Assembly (NCBI GenBank): GCA_045660265.1
Contig: JAZRDM010000017.1
Span: forward strand, 7,221 to 71,220
Direction: 5' to 3'
Origin: Candidatus Scatosoma sp.
Lineage (GTDB): Bacteria; Bacillota; Clostridia; Christensenellales; Borkfalkiaceae
Length of the DNA stretch: 64,000 nt
Part shown: positions 4,522 to 64,000 of the stretch, in pieces
Layout of the letters: each line of letters begins with the position of its first letter
Numbering within the stretch: position 1 is the first letter of the stretch
Position numbers and translations under genes: made by a program
Notes under the pieces: generated by a model
The model's input: the letters and a program-made list of their open reading frames with translations, nothing else
The model's database searches: none
What the model was told of the DNA's origin: nothing

Positions 4522-4606
4522 TGGTGGGCAGAGGTGGATTCGAACCACCGAAGTCGAAGACGTCAGATTTACAGTCTGATCCATTTGGCCGCTCTGGAAT
4601 CTGCCC
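4522..4606 (-). tRNA. tRNA-Tyr (anticodon GTA), class II with long variable arm, CCA encoded
   Basis: Manual cloverleaf: acceptor GGGCAGA/TCTGCCC, anticodon loop CTGTAAA, T-arm GGTGG-TTCGAAT-CCACC. Confidence 0.92.
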
Positions 4607-4637
4607 ATATATATTAAGGTGTAGCTGAATTTTGCTG

Positions 4638-4712
4638 TGGAGCCGGTGATTGGACTCGAACCCACAACCTGCTGATTACAAATCAGCTGCTCTGCCATTG
4701 AGCTACACCGGC
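4638..4712 (-). tRNA. tRNA-Thr (anticodon TGT), CCA encoded
   Basis: Acceptor GCCGGTG/CACCGGC, anticodon stem GCTGA/TCAGC with loop TTTGTAA, T-loop TTCGAGT. One G-A mismatch in the T-stem. Confidence 0.85.
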
Positions 4713-4715
4713 GTG

Positions 4716-4791
4716 TGGTGCCTTGGGGCGGAATTGAACCACCGACAGGCAGATTTTCAGTCTGCTGCTCTACCAACTGAGCTACCAAGGC
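4716..4791 (-). tRNA. tRNA-Phe (anticodon GAA), CCA encoded
   Basis: Acceptor GCCTTGG/CCAAGGC, anticodon loop CTGAAAA, T-arm GGTGG-TTCAATT-CCGCC. Confidence 0.92.
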
Positions 4792-4794
4792 ATT

Positions 4795-4871
4795 TGGCGA
4801 CCCAAAACGGGCTCGAACCGTCGACCTCCAGCGTGACAGGCTGGCGCTCTAACCAACTGAGCTATTGGGCC
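4795..4871 (-). tRNA. tRNA-Asp (anticodon GTC), CCA encoded
   Basis: Acceptor GGCCCAA/TTGGGTC, anticodon loop CTGTCAC, T-loop TTCGAGC. Confidence 0.92.
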
Positions 4872-5536: not shown

Positions 5537-5647
5537 ATGATGAAAAATTATGAAACCCTTAAGATGACTGTGATTATGTTCGAAGAAACGGACATGATCC
5601 GCACGTCAACCGAAGACAATATCGGGGAAGAAGGAGATTGGGAGTAA
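5537..5647 (+). CDS. Small acidic peptide ORF (36 aa; start ATG 5537 or 5540) immediately upstream of the giant gene
   Basis: GGAGG at 5529-5533. MMKNYETLKMTVIMFEETDMIRTSTEDNIGEEGDWE. TAA at 5645-5647 is 5 nt before the ATG at 5653. A paralogous ORF lies at 62577-62693. Confidence 0.5.
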   Translation: MMKNYETLKMTVIMFEETDMIRTSTEDNIGEEGDWE

Positions 5648-5652
5648 AGGCT

Positions 5653-11600: not shown

Positions 11601-14600
11601 CGAAGATGCTTTGGAAGATTACAAGACGATTGTATTGAATGAAACGATTACCATTGAAAAGGTAAGCGGTACGTTCAATCTTCCTAACGAAGTTGAAGGC
11701 ACGGTTACGAAGGTTGTTGTTGGCAATGAAGAATTTACGGATATCAACGGCAAGACGGTTACCATTGGCGAAAATGCTTTGGTTGCACAAGAAAGCCTTG
11801 GTAAAAACGTATTAGTAACAATTGAGGCAGATGGTAAGAATTATGCATGCTATGCAAACGTTTATACCATGATTATCGATAACAAGGCTGAGCTTAAGAG
11901 CTGGCAAGCAGTAGCTGCAGACAACTCTGTAAAAGCAGGTCTTTGTGTAGAAGAACAAAAGCAAGCGGTACTTTCCGGTTACTTTGTACTCGGCGCAAAT
12001 ATCGAATATAACGATACTTGGACGCCTATTCTTCCTTTTGCAGGTGTAACGCCTAGTATTTATACTGTACTTTCCGAGGCTACGGCAAATAATTTGAAGA
12101 CGCAATATGCAAACGACGAAGTTGCATTGTCGAAGATTATTCAAGAAGGTTGGGGTACTGGCGAGAAAGCGGGCTTCAAGGGCGTATTTGATGGTGATGG
12201 ACACTACATCAACGGCCTTTGGGTTGGCGAAGGCTACTCTGGTTTCGTAATCACGCTTGGTGGCGGTACGATTAAGAACGTAGCATTTACAAACGCAACG
12301 GTTGGTTCTACGTCCTCGGTTGTAGCAAACCGTGGCCCTGGTTTAATCGAAAACGTTTACGTTTCCGTTGTAGAAATGGCTAACGGTAGCGATAAGGATA
12401 ATCCTACTTCTGTTGTAACGAGAGGTCAATATAAGACGCTTAGAAACATTGTTGTAGACGTATCTGCAATTGACTTTGCAAATCTCGAATATGCAATCGC
12501 TGTAAACTTGGTACAAGGTATTTCTGAAAACGTATACGTGCTTGGCGCAGGGGATGCTATTTACAATAGAACGCCTAACGGCAGTACGCCTAACAATTTC
12601 AGCGCAACGGACAAGAAAGCATCTGTATTCTACGAATTGAATGCTAACTCTGGCAGTGCTACCGACTACGACTTAGTAGGCAGCTTTGCAACGGCAGCAG
12701 ATCTCCTTGCAGACGCAACGCACGGCGCTATCGTTAAGGCATGGGCTGGCGATTTCTGGACGATTGACCAAGTAAATGGCAAGGTTATTCCTACCGAAGT
12801 GCTTGAAAATAATCCTGTTGCTCTGAAGAAACCTGCAATTCTTCCTATGCCTACCGGTCAAGCAAACGTATCCGTATACGAAGGAAATGTAGCATCGCTT
12901 GGTTTCCCTGCTGGTACGTACGTATCTGAAGTTGCAATTTCGGATCTTTGGAACAGCAGAGCTAAGGTTACGACGGATGATGTAAATGCTGATTATATCA
13001 GTATTGACTTTATGCTTGCACAAGGCTCTACGATAAAATCGTTCACAATCTGGCCTGGTACGACTGGTAGTATTGCTATTAATGCTAACGGTGTTTCTTT
13101 CAATGAAAACGCGTTAGAAAGAACGATTGTTATTTTGGACTCCGAAGGCAACAACGCAACCAAGGGTCCTTGGAATGCAGGCGAAATTTATACGTTGAAA
13201 TATTACTTCATTGGCGAAGAAGCTTCGAAGAAATATTTTGCAATCTCTTCGGATAACGTAAATAACGTAATTTACTTTGCAAATGGTAAGAGCGGTAGCG
13301 TTACCGAATTGGATGAAACGATTGAAATTATTGCTACTGATGCAAGCTTCGAATTACCTGCAGGTATTGTAGGCGAAGTTACGGGCGTTACGCTTGATGG
13401 TGTAAACATCTTCAAGGGTATGAACGGTTCTAGCGTTCTTTTGGATGCGGAAGCGCTTGCGGCTAACGTGGCATCCCATGGCGTAGGTAAGGCGTTAAGT
13501 ATCGTTACGACGTCTGGCGAATATAACGCACAAGCAGACGTTATCACGAAAGTGATTAAGACGGCTGACGACTTGAAGGCACTCGGCGTAGGCGGTAACA
13601 GAAGCGGCGTAGAACAGGTTTATGGCTACTACGTACTTGGAAATAATATTACGTTTAACCACGCTGATGACTATTCCGACTTAGTAACTGCAGGTTATCC
13701 GAAGAATAATGATCACGCGTTCCGCGGTACGTTCGACGGTAGAGGCTATACGCTTGATAACATGAGAGTTTCGGACGGCGGTATCTTCGGTATTATGCGC
13801 GGTACGGTTAAGAACGTTAACTTGACCAACGTGCATATGATTGATAATCCTCCCGCAGGTGTATCCATCCAAAATGGCGGCTATATTGCTATCTTGGCAT
13901 ATGCAGCACCTAACGGTACGTTTGAAAATATCAATATTAGCATCGCATCCTCGCCTAGCACATATAGCTGGAAGAGATATGGCTTGCTTGTTAACTCTGG
14001 TTCGAGCGGCGCAGCTACCTTCCGTAATATCACGGTTAGCGCAGAAGGGATGAAGTTAAAGTCGCTTTTGGGTATTTCCCATAATGCAAACAACGTATAC
14101 GAAAACGTGGTAATTAAAGCCGCTGATTACGTGGCGATTGGTTACACGGGCGACCCCTACACTACAAGCGGTGAAAACGTTGCTTTACGTATGAACGAAT
14201 TCCCCGCAGGCGTAACGTTTGTTAAGGTTGCTTACGTAAAGGATGCAAGCGGCGCGATTATTCCTTTCTATGAAGGCGACGTAACGGATCTTGGCTTTGA
14301 AGCAGGTACGAAGGTTCAATACGTAGTACAAGACAACCGTACGAATATGTGGAATCCTGGTACCGAACTTGGCTTGAGTATGGAAAAGCAAGGTGTTATG
14401 ATTACTAAGGGTGCAGATGAAGATTACGCAAGCGTTCTGTTTGCTGTTTCTAGAGAATTCACCGGCACGTACGCATTCTTCACTTGGTGGTTTGATGGCT
14501 TAACCGCAGCTGACAACCAAGACGGCGGCGGTTATATTAGAACAGACGGTGAGTATTATGCTTCTGGTACAACGCTTCCTGGCGCTAAAGCAGTAGCATA

Positions 14601-16233
14601 TGACATGAACGGTAATAAGGTAACGAGCTTTGCTGCAAATACCGTTTACGAATTGAGATGGTATGGCGAAGGCGCAATGATGTTTAAAGTAGCTTGCTGT
14701 GAACAAAACGGCCAATCTATTACGACGTATTTTGCAAAGCCTTCTAGCGGAAGCATTGAAACGATTGAGCTTGACGATCCTGTAACGATTGAAGTTGAAA
14801 ATGGCAGCTTCGCAATTCCTTCGGGAGTTGCGGGCGCCGTTAACAGCGTTACGATTGACGGGGTAGAAATTTTTGCAAGCGTATCGAACGGTGAAATTAT
14901 CTTCGATAAAGGCGCAATGTCTACCGGCGCAGGTAAAGAACTTATTATCAAGACGCACATTGCGGAATACGTAGTAAGCGCAGACGTTGTTACGAAGATT
15001 ATTAAGACGGCTGCAGAATTGCAAGCACTCGGCGTAGGTGGTAGAACTGCCGACGGAAATGGTAATACGGATGAAGCAGGTCATGACGTATACGGTTATT
15101 ACGTGCTTGATGGTAATATTGATGGTAGTGGTTTGTACTTCGCGGCTGGTATCTCCGGTCAACAATCTTGGTTCCAAGGTACGTTTGACGGCAGAGGTTA
15201 TACGGTTGCTAACGTAATCGTATCCGAAGGCGGTATCTTCGGCGGTATGAAGAATGCAACGGTTAAAAACGTAAACTTCACAAACGTTAAATATCACGAT
15301 AACACCAATGGTGCAGGTCAAGGCTATAACGACAACAAGCAATGGGGTCAATACTTCGGCTTGCTTGGCCAATGGGCAAATAATATCAACGTTGAAAATA
15401 TTACCGTACAAATTTCCGAACTTAATAACTACATGGCAGTTGGTTTGCTTGTCTACAGTGGTTTTACGGGCACTACAAACAACTTCAAAAATATCCACGT
15501 AGATGCTTCTGGCTTAACCTTCTTTAACGTGTTAGAATTGAATTATGGAACAGCTACCATGAACTATGAAAACGTTACCATTAAAGCAGCTGGATATAGT
15601 ACGATTGCGTTGAAGGGTGGTTCTAAAGGTTCTGAAGCAATTACCGAATGGCCTGCAGGCGTAACGTATATCCAATCTACCCACTCTGAATATGCGTATT
15701 ACTTTAAGTCTGGCGCAAATGCAAATGGTGAAGTAGTACCTTTCTATATGGGAGACGTAACGACGCTTGGCTTTGAAGCAGGTACGAAGGTTCAATACGT
15801 AGTACAAGACAACCGTACGGGTCTGTGGTCGGCTGGTACTGAACTTGGCTTGACGATGGAAAAGCAAGGTATCAGAATTACGAAAGAGGCTAACGAAGAC
15901 TACGCAAGTATTTATTTCTCCCTTTCGAGAGAATTTACTGGCGCGAATGCGTTTGCGACTTGGTGGTTTGATGAAGAGGGTACTAATAGATCTCTTGCTG
16001 GTTATTTGAAGACAGATGGCACATATACGACCGCCAGCACTGGCCCCACAAACTTCAAGGTTGTTGCATACGACATGGAAGGTAACCAAGTAACGAGCTT
16101 TGCTAAAAATACCGTTTATGAAATGAGATGGTATGGCGAAGGCGCAATAACGTTTAAAGTAGGTTGCTGTGAAATAAACGGCCAATCTATTACGACATAC
16201 TTTGCAAACGCAATGCACGGTAACGACGCGTAA
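5653..16233 (+). CDS. Giant secreted/surface repeat protein (~3,526 aa)
   Basis: One uninterrupted ORF; the track starts it at TTG 5638, but ATG 5653 has GGGAG 7 nt upstream. Read by eye: N-terminal hydrophobic signal-anchor MKKNFKNLFVSLALCASLCCGIVGVAVSG; Big_2-like segment SAIISVDGETLTAKSAGETKITVRGT; DUF4838/glycoside-hydrolase-like region with the motif FSQMDHNYWCQCSACK; repeated F.G.FDG.GY.I beta-helix-like modules; Ig-like spacers; putative binding modules. No LPXTG, S-layer or choline-binding anchor seen at the C-terminus. Confidence 0.85.
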   Translation: MKKNFKNLFVSLALCASLCCGIVGVAVSGIFNAKQSVAEAYETLDGFTIEETASIRRNMPSGIRFTTNIESVSATVAALNDVEFGTLVLPADLLGSEELTHATEKVVDIPTTKWQNEEKTEYTSVLGGAGGANLSSSYYNRPIAARSYITGTDSNGTKITYYTENMAVRSLGYVAYMANLDGDTSELITKIVDETKVEITFNPEGQISYYNNDNTGTAVVTNALPKETSSMASIKIGGVTVPVSELEKRNATLSYESENSAIISVDGETLTAKSAGETKITVRGTFNGKELKAVTQNVSTDGYAPVSSQYKILISAKTAAHNMGYRDGETSYLPPQTEAASEAYFTYASEHTAAYLLQSIIEEATGVRLEVVAEGSAKYNAADKFISVGKTQLAKAKANELGLTMGSFKDANLASEYTVSALTYVEDGETKTFEKDTASKVQTVGDNVFLLGVTGQGTLYGAQRFLREMAGYGYYMEDSYVVDEKVDFVLPSKTLVYIPDIEYNVTQGEANSMHVNYGLQSYTQNIIPVGTTDEQDASGNYYKGINHNSTLVVDDKTHIALSQIDQGLNGGYNYYTENIKAKANHWMAWYATKSGSLSVGTYTEWVLWAIPAKPYTGDATNFILAELCYTAHGDIFSDYTRAGLVERVADEMYAKMQKFPTLDRLGFSQMDHNYWCQCSACKNEGNPSDNLLHFLLDVAANLKGKLEDAGDARKDTFKISTLFYHATSPAPKSTANYATELTNYMKHIEPWFAETKVDHVDPFNYDKPGTTSGWNEKVYEEFKKWANIANQYGADMLLWEYYVNTTNFFQPYDTVDAIRVNYGLFADAGIDYIFNQMMEGKNTWKRLKQFLISQLAWNARPTNDVWNGWIDEYFVGAYGDAAEEMRDYYDSMKVWSDAHKDLFRADNNYSTNTTGGTAATNASLTYDAVSSENFPKATLETWINLCNDALEALDPADPNYNTYYSNIMLEKLSPMYLIMYIYDAAPVVTETKTVTYKDKNQATQSFTYDVYGFESGADTSEVQTYGAEFAQWARYWNIRNSGEGDSKRIHLFYSYVDYTENKENGKWINDEQSGFIPAIEALVGKNDTIQVKHVNEIVSVEKASGVVSVAALANGTYNVSGAIEANNVTVNNGSVTLNMSNLTAGNTYALTFTNTTTGAVISYPNVVVVTGALSATAGVPAGDGYYFVTRDYVVEEGTTETWLSHNVFAKGSYTVSINGGLPIATTIHAAGKLNVQFNAPAVMGEKYLVEVSNGTQTYAFAVYGAKYIRTAEELKALGVGGNRNNTENIYGYYALGNDITFEHDAEYSDLVAAGYPANSTYAFYGTFDGNGYSINNMRVSDGGIFGIMSGTVKNVTLKDVHICGIIPHKTENKVVIKQYTNQQGAYTAIFAHKAPGGTFENINISIASSPNTYTWQRDGLFVVSGSDNSAATFRNITVSAEGVKLKTLLGISHNENNVYQNVLIKSAGYVGIGYTGDSYTSTGENVAVRMNEFPAGVRYIEVTERFGITNTEETVGIGEELTITTDKANLSYTYSLAKAVNGVSVDENGVVTVADNAKVGATFTVVVSGSNYQTEEITFTVRKAKKTLSAVVEIEQINGSFTIPSVEGEILKVTVGDKEFSDISGNTIEFGEKDFVKQETLGKGKTYTIETLTTIYTGTANIYTMIIDNKAELDQWQAVASDNAVAAGDVLEIQKKALYNGYFILGADIEYNATWGGYGIAWGAFNNKALWKEEHQSKYSTTHATVLAAFNAGWFIEGAIYEDWGTGVLGGFKGVFDGDGHYIDGMGMSGNFAGFVVTLGGGTIKNVAFTNAKVLSSNSGFVTNRGPGIIENVYVQVVEMVNGSDANNPTSIISRGPGKTISNIIVDVSAIDFANLEYAYVVSLATGTSDGVYVLGAGDAVYNRTPNGNTPNNFNATDKKASVFYELNGNSGSATDYDLVGSFATSADLLADATHGAKVRAWNDNGFWVVDTTYGIVIPEVLYEDALEDYKTIVLNETITIEKVSGTFNLPNEVEGTVTKVVVGNEEFTDINGKTVTIGENALVAQESLGKNVLVTIEADGKNYACYANVYTMIIDNKAELKSWQAVAADNSVKAGLCVEEQKQAVLSGYFVLGANIEYNDTWTPILPFAGVTPSIYTVLSEATANNLKTQYANDEVALSKIIQEGWGTGEKAGFKGVFDGDGHYINGLWVGEGYSGFVITLGGGTIKNVAFTNATVGSTSSVVANRGPGLIENVYVSVVEMANGSDKDNPTSVVTRGQYKTLRNIVVDVSAIDFANLEYAIAVNLVQGISENVYVLGAGDAIYNRTPNGSTPNNFSATDKKASVFYELNANSGSATDYDLVGSFATAADLLADATHGAIVKAWAGDFWTIDQVNGKVIPTEVLENNPVALKKPAILPMPTGQANVSVYEGNVASLGFPAGTYVSEVAISDLWNSRAKVTTDDVNADYISIDFMLAQGSTIKSFTIWPGTTGSIAINANGVSFNENALERTIVILDSEGNNATKGPWNAGEIYTLKYYFIGEEASKKYFAISSDNVNNVIYFANGKSGSVTELDETIEIIATDASFELPAGIVGEVTGVTLDGVNIFKGMNGSSVLLDAEALAANVASHGVGKALSIVTTSGEYNAQADVITKVIKTADDLKALGVGGNRSGVEQVYGYYVLGNNITFNHADDYSDLVTAGYPKNNDHAFRGTFDGRGYTLDNMRVSDGGIFGIMRGTVKNVNLTNVHMIDNPPAGVSIQNGGYIAILAYAAPNGTFENINISIASSPSTYSWKRYGLLVNSGSSGAATFRNITVSAEGMKLKSLLGISHNANNVYENVVIKAADYVAIGYTGDPYTTSGENVALRMNEFPAGVTFVKVAYVKDASGAIIPFYEGDVTDLGFEAGTKVQYVVQDNRTNMWNPGTELGLSMEKQGVMITKGADEDYASVLFAVSREFTGTYAFFTWWFDGLTAADNQDGGGYIRTDGEYYASGTTLPGAKAVAYDMNGNKVTSFAANTVYELRWYGEGAMMFKVACCEQNGQSITTYFAKPSSGSIETIELDDPVTIEVENGSFAIPSGVAGAVNSVTIDGVEIFASVSNGEIIFDKGAMSTGAGKELIIKTHIAEYVVSADVVTKIIKTAAELQALGVGGRTADGNGNTDEAGHDVYGYYVLDGNIDGSGLYFAAGISGQQSWFQGTFDGRGYTVANVIVSEGGIFGGMKNATVKNVNFTNVKYHDNTNGAGQGYNDNKQWGQYFGLLGQWANNINVENITVQISELNNYMAVGLLVYSGFTGTTNNFKNIHVDASGLTFFNVLELNYGTATMNYENVTIKAAGYSTIALKGGSKGSEAITEWPAGVTYIQSTHSEYAYYFKSGANANGEVVPFYMGDVTTLGFEAGTKVQYVVQDNRTGLWSAGTELGLTMEKQGIRITKEANEDYASIYFSLSREFTGANAFATWWFDEEGTNRSLAGYLKTDGTYTTASTGPTNFKVVAYDMEGNQVTSFAKNTVYEMRWYGEGAITFKVGCCEINGQSITTYFANAMHGNDA
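9454..10160 (+). repeat. Beta-helix-like module A, copy 1 (other copies at ~13552-14230 and ~15001-15680)
   Basis: I(R/K)TA.(E/D)L.ALGVGG...YGYY.LG..I...FxGTFDG.GY...N..VS.GGIFG recurs three times at protein level. Confidence 0.8.
10420..12830 (+). repeat. In-frame tandem duplication, 2 x ~1.2 kb (Ig-like plus module B)
   Basis: Units ~10420-11640 and ~11641-12830 align throughout, for example IYTMIIDNKAEL...GFKGVFDGDGHYI...GGGTIKNVAFTNA...YDLVGSFAT. The ~90-nt stretches at 11399-11490 and 12604-12694 differ at only a few positions. Confidence 0.85.
13291..16230 (+). repeat. In-frame tandem duplication, 2 x ~1.47 kb (Ig-like, module A and C-terminal module C)
   Basis: Units ~13291-14755 and ~14756-16230. 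Identical 54-nt run at 14290-14343 and 15766-15819. Protein-level match from GDVT.LGFEAGTKVQYVVQDNRT to W.FD, and from RWYGEGA..FKV.CCE.NGQSITTYFA onward. Confidence 0.9.
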
Positions 16234-26807: not shown

Positions 26808-26883
26808 GGGGTTATGGCTCAGTTGGTAGAGCGCCTCGTTCGCAACGAGGAGGCCAGCGGTTCGAATCCGCTTAGCTCCACCA
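26808..26883 (+). tRNA. tRNA-Ala (anticodon CGC), CCA encoded; prophage attachment site
   Basis: Acceptor GGGGTTA/TAGCTCC with the G3:U70 alanine identity pair, anticodon loop TTCGCAA, T-arm AGCGG-TTCGAAT-CCGCT. Confidence 0.92.
26859..26883 (+). repeat. attL core GGTTCGAATCCGCTTAGCTCCACCA
   Basis: Identical 25-mer at 62228-62252. Confidence 0.9.
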
Positions 26884-27003: not shown

Positions 27004-28257
27004 TTATTGTTTTTCAAGTTTCGCAACAGGGAAAATAACCTTGTTCATTTCTTCGCGCATAAACTTATCGGGAAAGTGCGTATAATGCTTTGCGATCAAG
27101 CGAACGGGTGAATCTCCGATCCATATTTCTACGATTTCTTGACGAACGTACTGTTGACAAATCGTAGAAAAAGTATGTCGCAAATTATAAGCAGATTTCT
27201 CTTCACCTAAAAGTTCTTTAAAAAGCTTATTTGCTGTTACGGCTCGTACTTTTCGGTGTAATGGCGAAGTCCAGTCGATCAATCCTCGTGCCTGTATAGG
27301 TATGGGGATTTTTTTATACTCGATTTTCCCGTTTTTTCGTTTACGGTTTCGTGCAATCAAGAACTCGCCTTCGACGCGTGTCTCTTCGTCGAGTTCGGAT
27401 GCGCGCAGTCCAAAGAAATAATAAAAGTATGCCATTTGCCGAATTTTATCAAATCGTGGCTCGTTAATGCGGCATAAGAAGCTGTCGATTTCTTCTTCGG
27501 ATAAAGCTTCACGAACTTGCCTTTCGGCGCGGTGAAAGGGCACGAGCGCAACTGGATTGACCGTTATCAATCCAAGAGCCATGGCAAATTTAAAAACGCT
27601 GTTAAAAACAGTTCGCATATCTTCATAGCCTCGCGCGGAGAGCGTATTCATATATTCAGATAATTCAATTGTTGTAATCGTCGAGATGCGTTTTTCTTTT
27701 ATTGAAGTTGGTATTCTATTGAAACGGACTCGATAATCTCCAAGCGTTTTCGGTGTTATTTTGCTTTTTGATTTGTGTGCAAAAAACTTTTCGAAAATGT
27801 CGGCAAATAGATCTGATAAACCATCATTGCGACGAATGCGATATTTTTCAATCTTTTCCGATGTTGTTTTTGCTAAAAACTTTTTTTTCGCCTCCGCCAA
27901 GTCGGTGGAGGATGCAGTTATATTATAACCATTTGAGCGGTAGCGAATTTCGTAGCAATACGAGTTCCTACCGCTTTCTCTTTTTATAACGTGAGCGCAA
28001 AGGCCGTTCGCTATAAATTCTTTTTTAAATGTAATCGCCATCTTTGAAATCTCCTTAAGTGTAAATTTCATGATAGTCGTTACAGATTTTGTATGTTGTT
28101 GTAGTTTAACTGCGCTGCCTTGGGATTCCAAGGTAACGAGCCGTTCGATCAAGGCGGTGTAGTCGCCGGCGATATTCATAATCTCGTGCCGCTCACGCGC
28201 CATCATCAGTTTTTGAGTGATAGTTATAAAATCATCAGATAAATTGCTCTTATGCAT
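27004..28257 (-). CDS. int: Tyrosine-type site-specific integrase
   Basis: C-terminal catalytic region ...LRASEL...YNLRHTFSTICQQ...IGDSPVRLIAKHYTHF (R, HxxR and Y signatures). Adjacent to attL. The true start may be an internal Met. Confidence 0.85.
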   Translation of the reverse strand: MHKSNLSDDFITITQKLMMARERHEIMNIAGDYTALIERLVTLESQGSAVKLQQHTKSVTTIMKFTLKEISKMAITFKKEFIANGLCAHVIKRESGRNSYCYEIRYRSNGYNITASSTDLAEAKKKFLAKTTSEKIEKYRIRRNDGLSDLFADIFEKFFAHKSKSKITPKTLGDYRVRFNRIPTSIKEKRISTITTIELSEYMNTLSARGYEDMRTVFNSVFKFAMALGLITVNPVALVPFHRAERQVREALSEEEIDSFLCRINEPRFDKIRQMAYFYYFFGLRASELDEETRVEGEFLIARNRKRKNGKIEYKKIPIPIQARGLIDWTSPLHRKVRAVTANKLFKELLGEEKSAYNLRHTFSTICQQYVRQEIVEIWIGDSPVRLIAKHYTHFPDKFMREEMNKVIFPVAKLEKQ

Positions 28258-28383: not shown

Positions 28384-28737
28384 TTACTTATTCGTTTTTG
28401 CATCGGTGGCGATTTCTAATAGTTTTATTTGAGCGTCAACAAATTCTTCCCCGAGAATTTCGTCGGCTCGGGACAAGACGTGGAAACGATAACGGTCTTT
28501 GTCCGATAAAACGATTGCGTGGCTGTCGCTCAACCCAAGCGCGCGTTCTTCGTCCGTAAAGGTGGGGGCGAGCCCAAGGGCACGTTCGATTGCTTGCATA
28601 GTATCTATGCGAGGGTGTTTTACTACGCCGAAAAGAATTTTTTCAACCGTGCTTTTAGGTAAATTCGCCCGTTCGGAAAGTTCTTCTATTGAAAGTCCTG
28701 CGTTTTTTCGAATTTCATTCAGTTGATTTGGGTTCAT
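28384..28737 (-). CDS. CI-like XRE-family repressor (no S24 peptidase domain)
   Basis: Start MNPNQ (complement of 28735-28737) after GGAG. HTH LNEIRKNAGLSIEELSERANLPKSTVEKILFG. Divergent from a Cro-like gene. Confidence 0.7.
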   Translation of the reverse strand: MNPNQLNEIRKNAGLSIEELSERANLPKSTVEKILFGVVKHPRIDTMQAIERALGLAPTFTDEERALGLSDSHAIVLSDKDRYRFHVLSRADEILGEEFVDAQIKLLEIATDAKTNK

Positions 28738-28884: not shown

Positions 28885-29043
28885 ATGAGTGCGTATGCAC
28901 TTGCTAAAGCGGTAGGGTATAAGCCACAAACGGCTTACAACTGGGTGTATGGACATGGGACACCAACTCCTGCGGTAATGTTAAAAATGACGAACATTTT
29001 AGAGATTTCAGCGCAAGAAATTTTGGAAATGTTCGCGGAGTAA
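28885..29043 (+). CDS. Cro-like small HTH protein (52 aa; too short for the ORF track)
   Basis: AAAAGGAG upstream. MSAYALAKAVGYKPQTAYNWVYGHGTPTPAVMLKMTNILEISAQEILEMFAE. Confidence 0.6.
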   Translation: MSAYALAKAVGYKPQTAYNWVYGHGTPTPAVMLKMTNILEISAQEILEMFAE

Positions 29044-29056
29044 ACGGAGAAAGTAT

Positions 29057-32244: not shown

Positions 32245-32967
32245 ATGGCAGGAGTAAAAGGATTTACATTTTGGGAGAACTACTATACAACGATCAGCGA
32301 TCCCGACAACGAGCTTTCGGACGAAGAAAAGGGCCAGCTCTATAAAGCTATAATCGAGTACATTTTTGACGGCAGAAAGCCCGAGTTTAAAGGCGTTACT
32401 CGCGCCATATTTTCCGCACTTCTGCCAAGTCTCGACCTTTCAAAAACAAGGTCGCAAAGCAGACAAAGCGGGAAGAAAACGGAAACAAACGAAAATCAAA
32501 ATCAAAACAAACGAAAATCAAAACGCAATCAAACTGAAAAGAAAACGGAAACAAACGAAAATCAAAGTGATGATTGTGACCTTTATATAAATAATAAAAG
32601 TATTATCCTGACGGATAATACGAAAGGAGAAGATATAAAGGGGGATTATAAGGGGGAAGAAAACGCAAGAGAAAGCTTCTTTAAGTCTCATCCAAATATC
32701 GTTATCGATAACTATGATCCGTCGGTTTTATTAGAATTGACAGACGAAGATTGGGAAACAATAGCGTTGCAATTCGAGAAAAGCGAGTGGTTGCGGAAGA
32801 ACGTAAAAACGATGTCGATGTTATGTAGGCTTTCGAGCAAGATTCTCGCCGGGGTGTATGCGCCGTTTGAAAAAGTGCAAAACGAGAAAGACGATGACTT
32901 AACCGAAGAAGAACGGCGCGACAACGAAGAGTGGTTTGAAAAGAATTTTGGACATACCAGCGGATAA
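32245..32967 (+). CDS. Phage replisome-organizer-like protein (DUF6291-like N-terminus)
   Basis: FWENYYTTISD...EEKGQLYKAIIEYIFDGRKPEF....AIFSALLPSLD pattern. Central K/N/E-rich linker with a 28-bp direct repeat. Confidence 0.45.
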   Translation: MAGVKGFTFWENYYTTISDPDNELSDEEKGQLYKAIIEYIFDGRKPEFKGVTRAIFSALLPSLDLSKTRSQSRQSGKKTETNENQNQNKRKSKRNQTEKKTETNENQSDDCDLYINNKSIILTDNTKGEDIKGDYKGEENARESFFKSHPNIVIDNYDPSVLLELTDEDWETIALQFEKSEWLRKNVKTMSMLCRLSSKILAGVYAPFEKVQNEKDDDLTEEERRDNEEWFEKNFGHTSG

Positions 32968-38279: not shown

Positions 38280-38939
38280 ATGAAAGGACAAGAAAATAAC
38301 AAAATGTATTTTAGCGGCGAGATTGTAAGCGATCCTACGATTACGCATACAGTTTGCGATGAAGGGTTTTACGAATTCGACGTGCGTATTCCAAGACTGT
38401 CTGGGGCGGACGATATTATTCCCGTGACCATATCCGAGCGGTTACTCTGTGGTCAGGAAATCGGCAAGGGAACGAAGATAAACGTCGTCGGTCAGCTCCG
38501 CAGTCGCAATACAATGGAGGGTGAACATTCTCGATTGGTCTTGAGAGTGTTCGCGCAGGAGCTTTTGACGGGAGAAACCGAAGACGCTCGGAACAGCATT
38601 GTTCTAAACGGCTACGTATGCAAACCACCGATTTATAGGGCAACACCGTTCAATCGTGAGATCACTGATTTATTGATTGCGGTTAATAGATCTCACAACA
38701 AGTCGGATTATATTCCTTGCATTGCTTGGGGTAGAAATGCGCGGTTTGCGAGTACGCTTTCGGTGGGAGACAGGATCGCGTTATCGGGGCGACTGCAAAG
38801 CCGTCAATACGAGAAGAAATATTCAGAGACGGATATTCGCAGAATGACTGCTTATGAGGTTTCGATCAATAAGCTTGCAACTCACAATACGGATGAGACT
38901 TTTGATATCAATAAAGATTTTAAGAAATACGTGGAATAG
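38280..38939 (+). CDS. Putative single-stranded-DNA-binding protein with two OB-fold-like halves
   Basis: Two internally similar halves (...INVVGQLRSRN...RLVLRVFAQEL and ...IALSGRLQSRQYEKK...TAYEVSINKL) resembling SSB OB folds. Confidence 0.45.
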   Translation: MKGQENNKMYFSGEIVSDPTITHTVCDEGFYEFDVRIPRLSGADDIIPVTISERLLCGQEIGKGTKINVVGQLRSRNTMEGEHSRLVLRVFAQELLTGETEDARNSIVLNGYVCKPPIYRATPFNREITDLLIAVNRSHNKSDYIPCIAWGRNARFASTLSVGDRIALSGRLQSRQYEKKYSETDIRRMTAYEVSINKLATHNTDETFDINKDFKKYVE

Positions 38940-38967
38940 GGGCAAGCGATAGCGTATTGAACAGCTG

Positions 38968-39390
38968 ATGGGAACGACTATGACGGAAGCGCGATTAAAA
39001 GAGATAAAGAGAATATTCAACAGCTACGGGCAAAATCTTGCGCAGCTTGGGCAGTTGGAACTACCCGGCGTTAAAGGCGTATCTTATGACAAAATAGCCG
39101 TAATGACGGATAATAGCAAAAACGCCGTTGAACAGCTTATGATTACATATCTTATCGACAAAGAGAAACTTGAAAAAGAGATAGCACTTGTAGATAAGGT
39201 GTATTTGTACTTTGCAGACGAACGCGACGTCGAGCTTGCGGAGCTAATCGATATGCGGTTTAGGAAAGGGAAATATCATTGGCAAGCGACAAACGGAGTT
39301 TATATTAGTGACAGACAAGGCTTGCGCTGGTTGGAAAAGGCGTATAAAAAGGCAGAAGAGTTTGCAATTCAAATGCATATTTTAGAATAA
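38968..39390 (+). CDS. ArpU/RinA-like late-gene transcriptional activator (tentative)
   Basis: 140 aa. Last gene before the packaging module. Pattern of an N-terminal YD. segment and a sigma-region-4-like C-terminal segment. Confidence 0.4.
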   Translation: MGTTMTEARLKEIKRIFNSYGQNLAQLGQLELPGVKGVSYDKIAVMTDNSKNAVEQLMITYLIDKEKLEKEIALVDKVYLYFADERDVELAELIDMRFRKGKYHWQATNGVYISDRQGLRWLEKAYKKAEEFAIQMHILE

Positions 39391-39432
39391 TTGAGGTGAC
39401 ATGACAAAAAATGTCGCCTCAATTTGTTTTTT
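39391..39432 (+). terminator. Rho-independent terminator closing the early/middle region
   Basis: TTGAGGTGACAT-GACAAAAA-ATGTCGCCTCAA followed by TTTGTTTTTT. Confidence 0.75.
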
Positions 39433-39589
39433 AGGGGTGTAAAATAGTATTATCGGAAAGGGCAGACAATCAGTCGCGCGGTTATTTGCAGTTTCCGATA
39501 GTTTCCCCTTAAGTGTATTTTTACGGTGTGCCGCCGCTATCTTTAGATAGCGGCGGTTGCGCTGTAAAAACTGGATATTTTATAGGGAC

Positions 39590-39618
39590 TTGACAAAAAG
39601 AATAAAGTATGCTATAAT
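39590..39618 (+). promoter_or_regulatory. Consensus promoter (TTGACA-17-TATAAT) in a 480-nt non-coding region
   Basis: TTGACA at 39590-39595 and TATAAT at 39613-39618. Two further TTGACA boxes at 39721 and 39806 have A/T-rich -10-like elements. Confidence 0.6.
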
Positions 39619-39876
39619 TTAAACCTATCAAAAAAGAATGCACATTTGAACTAAGTATCATAAAACAGCGTAAAAAACAAAAGAAACAAAAATTCGGCAA
39701 AAAAAGTTGGCAGTCCCCCCTTGACAAATTTACATTTTATTATAAAATATTCGCAAAACAAAAAGGGAGGGTGCGCAAATTTTAGAAAATATTACCAAAA
39801 AACGTTTGACAAAAATGAATGCTTGATATAAAATAAAATATGCGCGAAAATTAAAAAGGTGAATGGAAGGTATTTT

Positions 39877-40455
39877 ATGGCAAATTACAAAAGAAAAGAG
39901 AGTGAGCCAATAGAACAAGAATTGCAGAACTTTTATCAAAAAATTGGGAAGAAATTTACAGAAAAAGACGATATTTTTGAATATGGTCAAAAATTAGGGT
40001 TTTCGATTTGGAAGCTTCCATTAGATGATGAAAATCTTGACGGTATTATTATCGTACACGGACGCACTAAAAAAATTGGATTAAATGAGACATTAAACTT
40101 ACAGGATGCGCGGTTTGTTTTAGCTCATGAGTTAGGACATTATATTAGAAAAGATTTATCAAATGATAACAACGAGATTTTAATTGCTGAGAAAGATCGT
40201 ATTTTTCATGGAGATGAGAAGGAGCCGCGCGAAAATGACATGGATTATATGGCTGCTGCAATATTGGTTCCTCAGAAAGCATTTCTCAAGGATTTAGAAG
40301 AGTACGATTTTGATTATGAACAATTTGTTGACAAAGAAAAGGCGGAGATAAAAACCCCCCTTCCTAATGATTTGCTTGAGGCTCTTTCTAAAAAGTATTG
40401 TGTTGACCAAGCAGTAATATCAAGAAGAGTGGTAGAGGTTTCTTATTATGTCTGA
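39877..40455 (+). CDS. ImmA/IrrE-family (DUF955) zinc metallopeptidase
   Basis: GGAAGG then ATG at 39877. ...LDGIIIVHGRTKKIGLNETLNLQDARFVLAHELGHYI (HEXXH) and the downstream DYMAAAILVP motif. Confidence 0.8.
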   Translation: MANYKRKESEPIEQELQNFYQKIGKKFTEKDDIFEYGQKLGFSIWKLPLDDENLDGIIIVHGRTKKIGLNETLNLQDARFVLAHELGHYIRKDLSNDNNEILIAEKDRIFHGDEKEPRENDMDYMAAAILVPQKAFLKDLEEYDFDYEQFVDKEKAEIKTPLPNDLLEALSKKYCVDQAVISRRVVEVSYYV

Positions 40456-40939
40456 TCATTCACTTTTTGATGAATATTTGGAATTAAATAGAATATTTCA
40501 ATATAAAAAGAAACAGTCAACTCGTATTGACGAACAAAAAAAATGGGGTGAACCTGAACACCTTAATTATAGAAGCTCATCGATTGATAAAATTTTATAT
40601 AATTATACGCAGCAACAAGAAGAAAGATATAAGTTTAAAAAAGGATGGAAAAAATTTTTTGTAATATTCTTTGTAGTCCTTGCAATAATAATAATTGGTG
40701 GCTCTTGTTGGGTTTGTTGGAATGCAATCATGTATTTTAGCGAGAAAAGAGTAGAATTTCTTACTTGTATTATTACAGCGGCTGTTTCTTGTTTTGCATC
40801 AATTGTTTCAATCTTGTTGATTATCGTAAGATATATTTTCCCTTCGGACGAGGAAACAAATTTTAACAACTTGGTTTCTATTATTGTTCAAAATGATACC
40901 GAGAGATTAAAAGATATATCCAATAACGATAAAAAATAA
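40448..40939 (+). CDS. Two-TM membrane protein, translationally coupled to the ImmA-like gene
   Basis: ATG at 40448 overlaps the upstream stop by 8 nt. Charged N-terminal ~75 aa, then helices FFVIFFVVLAIIIIGGSCWVCW and FLTCIITAAVSCFASIVSILLIIV. Confidence 0.6.
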   Translation: MSDHSLFDEYLELNRIFQYKKKQSTRIDEQKKWGEPEHLNYRSSSIDKILYNYTQQQEERYKFKKGWKKFFVIFFVVLAIIIIGGSCWVCWNAIMYFSEKRVEFLTCIITAAVSCFASIVSILLIIVRYIFPSDEETNFNNLVSIIVQNDTERLKDISNNDKK

Positions 40940-40944
40940 TAATT

Positions 40945-40975
40945 AAGACCTGACGTAATAACGTTAGGTCTTTTC
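40945..40975 (+). terminator. Terminator of the ImmA/2-TM cassette
   Basis: 11-bp stem AAGACCTGACG / CGTTAGGTCTT with loop TAATAA, followed by TTTT. Confidence 0.65.
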
Positions 40976-41001
40976 TATATCTTTAATAAAACTAAAAGGG
41001 G

Positions 41002-42759
41002 TTGGAGGGTTTGGATAATAAACCGACAAAAAAATATAAAGAGCTCGTATTGCCGAGATTGGATGAAATTCAAGCGTGGGCAAGAGATGGCTTGAAGGAA
41101 GAAAAGATCGCGGAGAGGTTGGGCGTTGCTTATTCTACCTTTCGGGATTATAAAGAAAAAAATCCGGCACTTTCGGCAGCCTTAAAAAACGCGCGCGTGT
41201 ATGATGATGAAGTCGTGAATTCGCTACACCGAAATACGTTAGGCGGCGCCGTTACATTAAAGACTCCGATAAAGGTAAAGAAAAAGATATACGAGAATGG
41301 CAAAATAGTTCGCGAGGAAGAAGAAGTCGTCATCACGGAACGGGAAGAATATGTCAAGCCTGATACGATGGCTCAAATGTATTGGTTAAACAATCGGCAG
41401 GCGAAGACGTGGAAGGCAAAGCCTACCGACGAACAAGTGCTGGAAGACGAGGATAAATATCCTCCGATTAAGATCCCCGCCGAGTTGATGGTGGGTGCGT
41501 ATGCAAATCTTAATAGGCATATTTCGAACGGTGTTACGCGTGAAGCTATTATAAAAGGTGGTCGTGGTGGTTGGAAGTCATCTTTCCCTGGATTAAAAAT
41601 ACCAGAGTTGATGATGGCAAATCCAGCGGTCCATGCGTTATGTATGCGTGAAGTGAAAGAGACGTTAAAGGATAGCGTCTACGAGCAGATCAAGTGGGGG
41701 ATAGAAAAGTTAGGGGCGGCGGATCGTTTTAAATGTACGACGTCGCCTTTAAAAATTGTATATAAACCAACGGGACAAACTATCTATTTTCGCGGTGCGG
41801 ATGATCCGCTTAAAATCAAATCTATAAAACCCGCGTTCGGATATATCGGTATTGTATGGTTTGAAGAGTTTGATCAATACGCTGGCGAAGCTGCTATTCG
41901 TAGTATTCGACAGTCGGCGATTCGAGGTACGGATGAGAAAGGGCAAAGCCGAGCGGTTATCTTTGAAACTTACAATCCGCCGCCGACGGCGCAAGCATGG
42001 GCGAATCAATATGTCGCGGACATCGAAGCTCGTTCGGGAGATCCTCAACGAGCGAAAAAAGGAACGGAAGTATTGCACACCACATATAAAGATGTTCCGC
42101 CCGAATGGCTCGGCGATGAGTTTATTCAAGAAGCCGAGGATTTAAAAGCAAAAAGCCCGCGCGCGTACGATAACGAATATTTGGGACTTGTAACGGGTAC
42201 GGGGGGTAATGTCTTCGAGAATGTAGAAATAAGAGATATAACGGACGAAGAGATTGAGAACTTCGATAAAGTAAAACAAGGACTCGACTGGGGATACTTC
42301 CCCGATCCGACGGCGTTTGTTCGGTTGCAATATGAACCGTCAAAAATGACGATTTATATCTTTGACGAACTGAAACGTCTAAAGACAGGCAACGAAGAGT
42401 TGGTCGAACTTATGAAAAGGCACAAGGCTACATTAACAATAGCAGATAACGCGGAGGAGAAATCCATCGCGTTTTTTCGTACGCATGGGTATAATATTCG
42501 TGCCTGTGTGAAAGGACCGGGCTCCGTTGATTTTGGACTTAAGTGGTTGGCAAGCCGAGCAAAGATCGTTATCGATCGTAAGCGTTGTCCCGAAACGGCG
42601 AAAGAGTTTCAACGGTATGAGTATTTAAAAGATAAGGATGGAAACTTTGTTAGTGGATATCCCGATAAAGATAATCATTTTATTGATGCGGTAAGGTACG
42701 CATTGAATGATGATATTATGAGATCTAAGTATATTATCGCAGGAGGCATCCGCAAATGA
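41002..42759 (+). CDS. terL: Terminase: small-subunit-like N-terminal region fused to a PBSX-type large subunit (non-ATG start, uncertain)
   Basis: Residues ~1-140: HTH IAERLGVAYSTFRDY and ...PDTMAQMYWLNNRQAKTWKAKP, typical of TerS. Then Walker A KGGRGGWKSS and Walker B IVWFEEFD of TerL. Confidence 0.75.
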   Translation: MEGLDNKPTKKYKELVLPRLDEIQAWARDGLKEEKIAERLGVAYSTFRDYKEKNPALSAALKNARVYDDEVVNSLHRNTLGGAVTLKTPIKVKKKIYENGKIVREEEEVVITEREEYVKPDTMAQMYWLNNRQAKTWKAKPTDEQVLEDEDKYPPIKIPAELMVGAYANLNRHISNGVTREAIIKGGRGGWKSSFPGLKIPELMMANPAVHALCMREVKETLKDSVYEQIKWGIEKLGAADRFKCTTSPLKIVYKPTGQTIYFRGADDPLKIKSIKPAFGYIGIVWFEEFDQYAGEAAIRSIRQSAIRGTDEKGQSRAVIFETYNPPPTAQAWANQYVADIEARSGDPQRAKKGTEVLHTTYKDVPPEWLGDEFIQEAEDLKAKSPRAYDNEYLGLVTGTGGNVFENVEIRDITDEEIENFDKVKQGLDWGYFPDPTAFVRLQYEPSKMTIYIFDELKRLKTGNEELVELMKRHKATLTIADNAEEKSIAFFRTHGYNIRACVKGPGSVDFGLKWLASRAKIVIDRKRCPETAKEFQRYEYLKDKDGNFVSGYPDKDNHFIDAVRYALNDDIMRSKYIIAGGIRK

Positions 42760-62227: not shown

Positions 62228-62252
62228 GGTTCGAATCCGCTTAGCTCCACCA
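62228..62252 (+). repeat. attR core GGTTCGAATCCGCTTAGCTCCACCA (displaced original 3' end of tRNA-Ala)
   Basis: Identical to 26859-26883 and followed by what looks like the native tRNA terminator. Confidence 0.9.
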
Positions 62253-62713: not shown

Positions 62714-64000
62714 ATGAAAATTTTATCTAAGATAAAAAGAATTATTCTTTCCGTATGCGCTGTTATTTGCGGCGTATCTTGCGTTGGCGCGGTGGCGGTA
62801 ACAAGTGCTTTTTCAGGTAACGGAAATCAAGTGGTTACCAGCGCAGAAACTGTTGCTAGTGCTTCGGTGTCGGGTTGGTCGATATATAGTAGCAGTACGA
62901 ACCTGCATCAAGTATCCCTTAACTTTGAAGGCTTTAAGGCGTACAATAGTGACGTTACGGCAGACCCTACCGATAGTACGTACGATTTTATCTATAACTA
63001 TATAAAAATCAACGGAAAAACGATTAAAGAAATCAACACGAATACGGACACAAGCCAATGGGAGTGGACTTGGAGTACGCAAAAAAATAATGATAATTAC
63101 AAAAAACCCATTGTTTTAAGAATTCAAAAGACGGAATTCCAGCTTCGTATCCATGATAGCTTCTATCAAGCGGCAATGGCAAGCGACGGGGAATTTGTGA
63201 TTACGTATGATAAAGATTTGACTGTTGCGGGTTACGTTGTTGATGGTGAAACCTCTTATGCGTTAAACAACGGGACTTGGACTAAGGTAGAATCGGCAGC
63301 AATCAAAGCACCTGTTACGGTAGAAGGCTGGTCGACGTATTCCACAAACCTTTTTCGTTTTTCTATTAAGTTCGCAGGTATTGATGCCTACAATGGAGAC
63401 TCTACGGCAGATCCTACCGATAGTGCCTACGATTTTATATACGACTACATAAAAATAAACGGTAAAACGCTTGCGGAAATTAACGAAACGACGGATGTAA
63501 GCAGTTGGACTTGGCTTTGGAGTTCGCAACAAAATAACGATAACTTGAAAAAGCCTGCGATCATGAGAATTCAAAAGACAGAATTCCAGCTTCGTCTGCA
63601 CGAGAACTTCTATAATGCTGTAATGGCAAAGGACGGTAAATTTGTCGTTACTTTTGACGAAGCGTTTACGGTTGCAGGGTACGTGGCAGATAGGGAAGTT
63701 TCCTATCAATTAGACGAAAGCAACGGCACTTGGAGTGAAGTAGTATTACCCAAGGAAGCGCCCGTTACGGTGAGCGGCTGGGCTGCATATACCGGCAATT
63801 TGACTCAGTTAACGATTAACTTCGCTGGTATCAACGCATATAATAGCAGTGCTGCAGCAAATCCTACCGACCCTCAGTATAGCTTTGTTTATAACTATAT
63901 TAAAATTAACGGTAAAACGCTTGCAGAAATTAACGAAGATACGGACACGAGCGGTTGGACTTGGGACTGGAATGTACAAACAACGGAGCCAGATTACCAA
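62714..64000 (+). CDS. Secreted tandem-repeat protein, 3' end outside the window (not in the supplied ORF track)
   Basis: AAGGAGGG then ATG at 62714. Hand translation is open to position 64000. Signal-anchor MKILSKIKRIILSVCAVICGVSCVGAVAVTSAF. At least 2.5 copies of a 150-aa repeat. Confidence 0.8.
   Translation, partial: MKILSKIKRIILSVCAVICGVSCVGAVAVTSAFSGNGNQVVTSAETVASASVSGWSIYSSSTNLHQVSLNFEGFKAYNSDVTADPTDSTYDFIYNYIKINGKTIKEINTNTDTSQWEWTWSTQKNNDNYKKPIVLRIQKTEFQLRIHDSFYQAAMASDGEFVITYDKDLTVAGYVVDGETSYALNNGTWTKVESAAIKAPVTVEGWSTYSTNLFRFSIKFAGIDAYNGDSTADPTDSAYDFIYDYIKINGKTLAEINETTDVSSWTWLWSSQQNNDNLKKPAIMRIQKTEFQLRLHENFYNAVMAKDGKFVVTFDEAFTVAGYVADREVSYQLDESNGTWSEVVLPKEAPVTVSGWAAYTGNLTQLTINFAGINAYNSSAAANPTDPQYSFVYNYIKINGKTLAEINEDTDTSGWTWDWNVQTTEPDYQ
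62861..64000 (+). repeat. In-frame 450-nt tandem repeats (starts ~62861, 63311, 63761)
   Basis: CC(T/C)GTTACGG recurs at 63311 and 63761. Protein repeat: V.GW..Y......F.I.F.G..AYN...ADPTDS.YDFIY.YIKINGKT..EIN..TD.S.W.W.WS.Q.NND..KKP...RIQKTEFQLR.H..FY.A.MA.DG.FV.T. Confidence 0.85.

Follow-up and report, generated by a model that had tools for sequence, protein, structure and literature searches.

Background

RosmerTA systems combine zinc-peptidase antitoxins with variable toxins, and deletion of the antitoxin gene rmrA was reported as not obtainable (Millman et al. 2022 preprint). In the NetFlax network (Ernits et al. 2023, PMC10440598) these zinc-peptidase antitoxins constitute node D25, the ImmA hub. 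The same study validated the pair of Gordonia phage Kita: RmrT (gp33, YP_009301394, 'Transmembrane', D5) forms pores, depolarising and permeabilising the membrane, its neutralisation by RmrA (gp32, YP_009301393, 'Peptidase_M78', D25) is incomplete, and the two together confer protection against some coliphages. D5 toxins are exchanged in this network between antitoxins of the Panacea and ImmA types (PMC10440598). Here we report on a two-gene cassette, consisting of a gene for an ImmA/IrrE-type zinc peptidase (gene 1) overlapped by a gene for a protein with two transmembrane (TM) helices (gene 2), which is carried by a prophage in a 64,000-nucleotide stretch of contig JAZRDM010000017.1 of Candidatus Scatosoma sp. 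(the window, meaning the whole stretch analysed, in which all positions are counted). Our analysis favours, with a probability of about 0.6, the interpretation of this cassette as a RosmerTA-like toxin-antitoxin or anti-phage moron.

In the Kita genome (NC_031233) genes 32 (178 amino acids, aa) and 33 (119 aa) lie downstream of the tail genes and share 4 nt. The first ~50 residues of gp33 make up a cytoplasmic region, after which come two TM helices and a tail of modest length. The cassette in the window has the same layout as this validated RosmerTA pair (gp32/gp33; PMC10440598). The initial annotation of the locus, made from the sequence alone, had described an architecture that it did not recognise; this architecture is already known from Kita and is not new.

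Results

An autonomous cassette with deviant composition

The cassette and its signals comprise the following features, the promoters being scored as matches out of 12 to a sigma-70-type consensus.

39389-39424, plus strand: upstream terminator-like hairpin, 14 pairs and then a T-run, ending the upstream phage gene 38968-39390
39590-39618, plus strand: distal promoter-like site, TTGACA, 17-nt spacer, TATAAT, extended -10 TG; 12/12
39721-39748, plus strand: promoter P1, TTGACA, 16-nt spacer, TAAAAT; 11/12; A-rich UP-like stretch upstream
39806-39834, plus strand: promoter P2 (proximal), TTGACA, 17-nt spacer, TAAAAT; 11/12
39877-40455, plus strand: gene 1, 192 aa, standalone ImmA/IrrE-type (Peptidase_M78) zinc peptidase, predicted antitoxin/regulator
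40448-40939, plus strand: gene 2, 163 aa, two-TM protein overlapping gene 1 by 8 nt, predicted membrane toxin/effector
40655-40828, plus strand: TM hairpin of gene 2, TM1 ~70-92, loop of ~11-12 residues, TM2 ~104-127
40829-40906, plus strand: juxtamembrane hallmark of gene 2, R-Y-I-F-P-S-D-E-E-T-N-F-N-N-L-V-S-I-I-V-Q-N-D-T; family consensus K-Y-x-F-P-x-[DN]-E-E ... N-D
40945-40982, plus strand: intrinsic terminator of the cassette, 12-pair stem 40945-40972 and then a T-tract, 20 nt before the terminase start at 41002

The G+C content (GC) is 0.28-0.35 over 39600-41000 as compared with 0.42-0.47 in both flanks, which bears out the early impression, gained by eye, of a cassette richer in A+T than its surroundings. 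The promoters and terminator of its own that had also been proposed are those listed above (sites at 39590, 39721 and 39806; stem at 40945-40972), and promoter-like sites in the cassette region number 18 versus 8.0 +/- 3.0 in shuffled sequences. P1 and P2 are kept in all six cassettes that were aligned, that of the chromosomal, non-phage locus L010 included, and the mobile unit therefore consists of the promoters, the two genes and the terminator; a counterpart of the distal site at 39590 was found in phage-borne relatives. On its 5' side the inserted unit is delimited by the hairpin at 39389-39424.

In the otherwise similar phages of L006-8, recovered from several samples, a single deletion (L007, 880-1266) joins codon ~32 of the M78 gene to TM1 of gene 2, removing most of both genes, and the degraded cassette has an early stop after the start codon (ATG GCA AAT TAG). 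The occurrence of such a deletion derivative in relatives of the window phage indicates that the cassette is dispensable cargo. With its own promoter, its own terminator, a deviant composition and this dispensability for the phage, the cassette behaves as an autonomous moron.

The leader (39391-39720) holds two further hairpins, 39451-39500 and 39531-39556, beside the perfect promoter at 39590, and a promoter-plus-terminator mini-unit lies at the equivalent place in L001, L005 and L009. This mini-unit may represent a small RNA or a packaging-related element; the Rfam scan over 38900-41200 returned chance-level matches only.

Gene 1 encodes a minimal ImmA-type peptidase

Gene 1 starts with an ATG preceded by GGAAGG at 39865-39870, and its product carries, as first annotated, the full ImmA signature, with the zinc site HELGH (40126-40140), Glu119 within ENDMDYMAAAILVP and a match to Pfam Peptidase_M78 at E=1e-15 and 58 bits (cut-off 22). 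Residues H84, E85, H88 and E119 are invariant across the close family, as are H111 and G112 in a flexible loop beside the active site. The protein thus shows the defining traits of the ImmA/IrrE family: HEXXH, the downstream Glu in E..(A/D)..(F/Y)A..LL.P and the M78 fold. PADLOC models matched were capP (1.5e-15) and RmrA (up to 3.9e-8), and PHROGs assigned it to phrog_87 'metallo-protease', no NCBIfam match being found. The structures nearest to its AlphaFold2 (AF2) model (predicted local distance difference test score, pLDDT, 88) are CapP (7t5t), IrrE (3dti) and PprI (8sln), CapP being also its sole sequence-level relative in the PDB (E=1.4e-5). Gene 1 therefore encodes a minimal form, made of the peptidase domain and a short helical C-terminus, with neither a helix-turn-helix (HTH) nor a GAF domain, and it is the sole open reading frame (ORF) with HEXXH in the 64-kb window.

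Gene 2 encodes a two-TM protein with conserved soluble segments

Gene 2 starts, as had been noticed, 8 nt inside gene 1 (at 40448, the end of gene 1 being 40455), and through this overlap it is predicted to be translationally coupled to gene 1. The layout initially described for its product held for the N-terminal region, of ~69 residues ahead of the TM hairpin, and for the two TM helices; the supposed short charged tail turned out to be the most conserved segment of the family, 36 residues long and including Y129, F131, P132, E135, F139, N140, L142 and I146. The hallmarks of the wider family are K-Y-x-F-P-x-x-[DE]-E directly after TM2 and R-[DN]-x-x-[IL]-T-x-L-L-x-x-Y ahead of TM1. The structural model (pLDDT 75) is all-helical, with one helix at 6-23, another at 35-96 that runs into TM1, TM2 at 101-130 and a C-terminal helix at 133-162. 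Across the family, Lys and Arg average 4.4 in the 15 residues before TM1 versus 1.3 in the ~12-residue loop, which predicts an N-in/C-in topology; both conserved soluble segments would thus be cytoplasmic, on the same side as the peptidase.

The PADLOC and Pfam comparisons that the initial annotation had called for succeeded for gene 1 (Peptidase_M78, capP, RmrA) and returned nothing for gene 2. No Pfam, PADLOC (E up to 1, RmrT models included) or NCBIfam model matched the latter, the functional labels of PHROGs do not cover it, and a Foldseek comparison of its model with PDB and BFVD yielded no match. Given that Pfam, NCBIfam, PADLOC and PHROGs labels all miss the membrane partner, gut-prophage cassettes of this kind are currently invisible to defence-system finders. 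A SLATT effector, which had been mentioned as an example for gene 2, was considered and rejected: SLATT_5 matches only 2 of 133 wider members (at only 2e-4) and none of the 24 close members, and the other SLATT_1-6 matches are weak and driven by the TM helices.

The two genes travel as a pair through diverse genomic contexts

Close homologues of gene 2 are rare, with 8 clusters among 5.8 billion proteins (29 by profile) and a representative in only 3 of 185,579 species genomes, all of them Clostridia. An exhaustive profile search delimited a wider family of 898 clusters at 50% identity with E<=1e-3, most of which come from gut Clostridia or their phages; 266 of the clusters reach E<=1e-10. When phage and plasmid collections were queried at the DNA and protein levels, using both the cassette and distant members, nothing turned up, and a profile scan of viral contigs with the gene family was equally negative.

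All close homologues for which upstream DNA was available have an M78 gene abutting or overlapping gene 2. For the wider family, pairing was counted over 84 loci of a distant subgroup, which included 76 gene 2 matches with at least 500 nt of upstream DNA; an M78 gene lies immediately upstream on the same strand in 64 of these 76 loci, the usual overlaps being -8, -4 or -1 nt, and the remaining 12 are decay products (M78 gene cut by an IS110-like element, M78 fragment, split gene 2 or integrase fusion). The neighbourhood survey thus confirmed that the pair co-occurs beyond the window phage. The identities of the two partners are correlated pairwise (r=0.87), and the two genes are one functional unit travelling together.

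Close pairs in phages lie ahead of the terminase in two different backbones (L001-5; L009) and between tail genes in another phage (L020-23); one group is placed at a prophage end (L012-14), and others reside in plain chromosome, by an insertion sequence (IS; L010/11), after recR (L019) or between an ABC ATPase and a glycosidase (L024). When two flanking genes per side were inspected in 50 dereplicated loci, no conserved third gene appeared. The 146 neighbour proteins retrieved in this way include two with HTH_3, three GmrSD-like proteins (also matching PD-T4-2_A and NsnA), one PD-Lambda-1 and the products of restriction/methylase genes.

In L001, the closest phage relative, a diversity-generating retroelement (995-2813) with Avd (phrog_3206, 4.9e-20) and an RVT_1 reverse transcriptase stands directly upstream of the cassette, which suggests that the pre-terminase site is a hotspot for accessory genes. 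A link of the cassette to retrons or defence reverse transcriptases was discarded, as the Avd match identifies the enzyme beside it in L001 as a component of this retroelement.

Purifying selection extends to peptidases devoid of HEXXH

Both genes are under purifying selection, with ratios of nonsynonymous to synonymous substitution rates (dN/dS) of 0.11-0.28. HEXXH and the Glu ligand are retained in 67 of 77 full-length peptidase partners and HEXXH is lost in a lineage with AYEFACY or AYEFARY instead (nine loci: L046, L047, L054, L084, L086, L088, L089, L096 and L103) and in L048, the replaced motifs reading AYEFACYILNH, AYEFARYILNY and AHELAYY. In the AYEFACY/AYEFARY lineage dN/dS is 0.12-0.17 for the peptidase, dS being unsaturated, and 0.08-0.20 for the membrane partner, which is mostly intact. 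Purifying selection in this lineage implies that a non-catalytic function is being selected, most simply the binding of the membrane partner; it suits an antitoxin or regulator neutralising its partner through contact and is a poor fit for an activator acting by cleavage only.

A different kind of decay was observed in L029, L045 and L072-L081, where an IS110-like insertion in the peptidase gene leaves an 83-aa C-terminal remnant and gene 2 is intact; next to these disrupted loci lie genes for a tyrosine integrase and for a GmrSD-like (DUF262) protein of 596 aa.

Prophage setting and flanking genes

The prophage is complete within the window, spans 35.4 kb and is bounded by the attachment sites attL and attR, an exact 25-nt direct repeat (GGTTCGAATCCGCTTAGCTCCACCA) that matches the 3' end of tRNA-Ala(CGC). 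Its features outside the cassette are listed below.

26859-26883 and 62228-62252: the two copies of the attachment repeat, exact 25-nt match (the attL-side entry spans 26808-26883)
27004-28257, minus strand: integrase, adjoining attL
28384-28737, minus strand: XRE-type repressor, HTH_3 domain plus a short C-terminal part, without S24
28886-29044, plus strand: cro-like HTH ORF
38968-39390: 140-aa ORF directly upstream of the cassette, with a phrog_248 match at E=0.03 as its sole signal
41002-42759: large terminase, downstream of the cassette, Terminase_3 E=8e-36

The cassette had been placed between the terminator of a late regulator and the terminase. The position agrees with the hairpin at 39389-39424 and the terminase start at 41002, and the label 'late regulator' is unverified, the phrog_248 match being all that speaks for it; neither Pfam nor NCBIfam matched this ORF. 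The description of the CI-like repressor at 28384-28737 as lacking both an S24 domain and an adjacent immA proved right. The large terminase has a TTG start codon and an HTH_23-like segment at its N-terminus, and there is no separate small-terminase gene between it and the cassette. Four overlapping repeat copies with a 22-nt period in the early region of the prophage (32443-32566) may be iterons of the replication origin. In the host part of the window, the DNA just beyond attR (62897-63971) contains repeats with a period of ~447-450 nt and 60-78% identity, and a 3531-aa ORF (5638-16233) lies downstream of a four-tRNA cluster (4522-4871).

Discussion

A candidate RosmerTA-like system

The cassette shows what characterises RosmerTA-like systems in the NetFlax sense, that is, a conserved, overlapping pair of an M78 and a small TM protein which is mobile between contexts. 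It falls outside the PADLOC/DefenseFinder definition, which demands an RmrA with both HTH and M78 and a partner matching an RmrT model, the RmrA matches of gene 1 being partial and confined to the peptidase part. A role in defence or exclusion exerted through a membrane effector, as first suggested for this locus, remains the best reading. The following scheme is what we infer about the toxicity of gene 2 and its neutralisation, about which partner controls the other and about the trigger. In analogy to RmrT of Kita, the gene 2 product would insert in the membrane as an N-in/C-in helical hairpin and, if not neutralised, would permeabilise or depolarise it. Gene 1, a small cytoplasmic peptidase presumably made in a fixed ratio with gene 2 through translational coupling, would bind the conserved cytoplasmic juxtamembrane segments of its partner and hold it inactive, in most lineages probably cleaving it too. 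Infection by another phage would upset this balance, leading the lysogen to abort the infection, and the same toxin-antitoxin property would render the pair addictive for its carrier element.

Several observations weigh against this scheme. Defence genes are only modestly enriched in the neighbourhoods, gene 1 lacks the HTH that canonical RmrA proteins have, and the hhalign comparison of the gene 2 family profile with gp33, whose phage homologues are identical copies, is weak (probability 17.9%, E=1.4e-3), the alignment being in register over the juxtamembrane segment, both TM helices and 'IIT[KS][YD]LF'. Furthermore, the lineage with an IS-disrupted M78 gene keeps gene 2 intact in at least 10 contigs, an observation hard to reconcile with constitutive toxicity of gene 2 if the insertion does not silence that gene as well. 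Finally, no immA-like gene adjoins the prophage repressor and gene 1, as the sole HEXXH ORF in the 64 kb, is the only candidate for an anti-repressor protease.

Alternative explanations

The initial annotation, which proposed a protease-plus-membrane-effector pair, can be read as making the peptidase the activator rather than the antitoxin: as a sensor of infection, it would cleave the N-terminal domain or the tail of gene 2, releasing an autoinhibited pore. Such gating by proteolysis, which we consider unlikely, would account for the HEXXH and Glu ligand kept in 67 of the 77 full-length partners, for the flexible loop with invariant H111 and G112 by the active site, and for the intact gene 2 in loci where an IS disrupts M78, as expected of a protein that is harmless alone; the conserved cytoplasmic segments of gene 2 could likewise serve docking or cleavage. 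However, an activator that does not cleave should be useless, and the lineage lacking HEXXH is still under selection with an intact partner. Moreover, gene 1 lacks the GAF-type sensor domain of CapP and IrrE, and in the homologous architecture that has been validated, as in known systems at large, the peptidase is the antitoxin (PMC10440598), so that the activating role is not supported.

It is tempting, if a long shot, to extend this alternative to the whole family and to regard the KYxFP two-TM proteins as a new and large class of protease-controlled membrane effectors, in which an ImmA-type peptidase would dock on the juxtamembrane helices and gate the pore by cleavage in a gasdermin-like manner on a protein of only two helices, the catalytically dead lineages having evolved to sequestration. 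If true, this would provide the first mechanistic handle on infection sensing by RosmerTA-type systems.

Very doubtful is the proposal that the cassette governs induction, with gene 1 as an ImmA-like anti-repressor directed at the XRE repressor (28384-28737), comparable to ImmA/ImmR, and gene 2 as a membrane anchor or sensor controlling gene 1 or as unrelated cargo. The fold of gene 1 is nearest to CapP, IrrE and PprI, which cleave XRE-type repressors, and the repressor of the prophage consists of HTH_3 and a short C-terminal part with no S24; gene 1 is, as said, the only candidate anti-repressor protease of the window phage. Nevertheless, the pair is also found in non-phage chromosome, within a tail module and at a prophage end, and HTH_3 occurs in only 2 of 146 neighbours. 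In the window, the cassette lies 11 kb from the repressor as a transcription unit of its own, no operator-like motif is common to the cI/cro region and the cassette leader, and relatives of the window phage carry a deletion of most of both genes. The strict pairing excludes the variant with unrelated cargo, which the initial annotation had raised; as a function of the family it fails on the inseparability of the pair, its presence in non-phage chromosome and the scarcity of XRE neighbours. Since the peptidase is never parted from the membrane gene, occurs at non-phage loci without XRE neighbours and, in the window, belongs to a distant unit with no shared operator, anti-repressor action is not supported as the pair's conserved function. 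In the window phage gene 1 may additionally act on the XRE repressor as a secondary role, given that it is the sole HEXXH ORF in 64 kb and that the repressor lacks S24.

Another membrane function with a regulatory partner, for example superinfection exclusion by blocking DNA entry or holin/antiholin-like timing of lysis, would suit a small prophage-expressed membrane protein in moron position whose weak top Foldseek matches in the viral library include holins (E above 2), but it is the least credible proposal, since the lysis genes lie at a distance from the cassette, which moreover occurs at non-phage loci, neither structure nor sequence gave a significant match to a holin or superinfection exclusion family, and the obligatory peptidase partner is left unexplained.

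Comparison with known systems

The ImmA/ImmR modules of ICEBs1 and phages, IrrE/DdrO and CapP/CapH share with gene 1 the catalytic fold and motifs of M78, and the size of gene 1 is near that of COG2856 (~160 aa). In those systems the peptidase cleaves an adjacent XRE/HTH repressor, whereas the invariant partner in the cassette is a membrane protein. No HTH gene adjoins the pair in the window, the prophage repressor being 11 kb away, and this sets the cassette apart from an ImmA/ImmR module. CapP and IrrE have in addition a GAF domain forming a groove for single-stranded DNA, which gene 1 lacks; as its match to the capP model (242 positions) is limited to positions 5-131 and it has neither a GAF domain nor an HTH partner, gene 1 does not qualify as CapP/CapH.

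A similar logic, with a prophage-expressed cytoplasmic partner and a membrane effector that aborts superinfection, is followed by RexAB of lambda and by prophage pairs of mycobacteriophages such as gp30/gp31 of Butters. RexB has four TM helices and RexA is not a peptidase, and we know of no sequence or domain relationship of the cassette to RexAB or to Butters gp30/gp31.

PanAT pairs of the NetFlax network resemble the cassette in their small TM toxin and in a cytoplasmic antitoxin contacting the segment before the TM region, and differ in the antitoxin domain, which is Panacea (DUF4065) instead of M78. Canonical RosmerTA systems (Millman et al. 2022) likewise join an M78 zinc-peptidase antitoxin to a variable toxin; their RmrA proteins, however, are 360-400 aa long with an N-terminal HTH, gene 1 aligning to the peptidase part only.

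The Kita pair is the closest counterpart. In both cases a standalone M78 gene of ~180-190 aa comes first and a two-TM protein with a cytoplasmic N-terminus second, the start and stop overlap (by 4 nt in Kita and 8 nt in the cassette) and the pair is an accessory of a temperate siphovirus. The peptidases are homologous (gene 1 versus gp32, BLASTP 5e-7, hhalign 89.6%) and share the same PADLOC signature, in which the peptidase matches capP and RmrA while no model matches the TM protein. The Kita toxin, with 119 aa, is almost without a tail, in contrast to the 163 aa and the conserved 36-aa tail (KYxFP...ND) of gene 2; the hosts are actinobacterial in one case and gut Clostridia in the other, and the position is post-tail in Kita and pre-terminase here. 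Given that the validated pair fails the PADLOC definition of RosmerTA likewise, the negative PADLOC result carries no weight against a RosmerTA-like assignment of the cassette.

Beyond the architecture shared with Kita, what is new here is the size and sharp definition of a putative membrane-toxin family that no library model covers, as well as a lineage of pseudo-peptidases under selection. With a minimal peptidase, a minimal two-TM candidate toxin, two sharply conserved cytoplasmic motifs and peptidases that are dead but selected, this family offers a large natural data set on how an ImmA peptidase neutralises a toxin and on what triggers RosmerTA-type systems.

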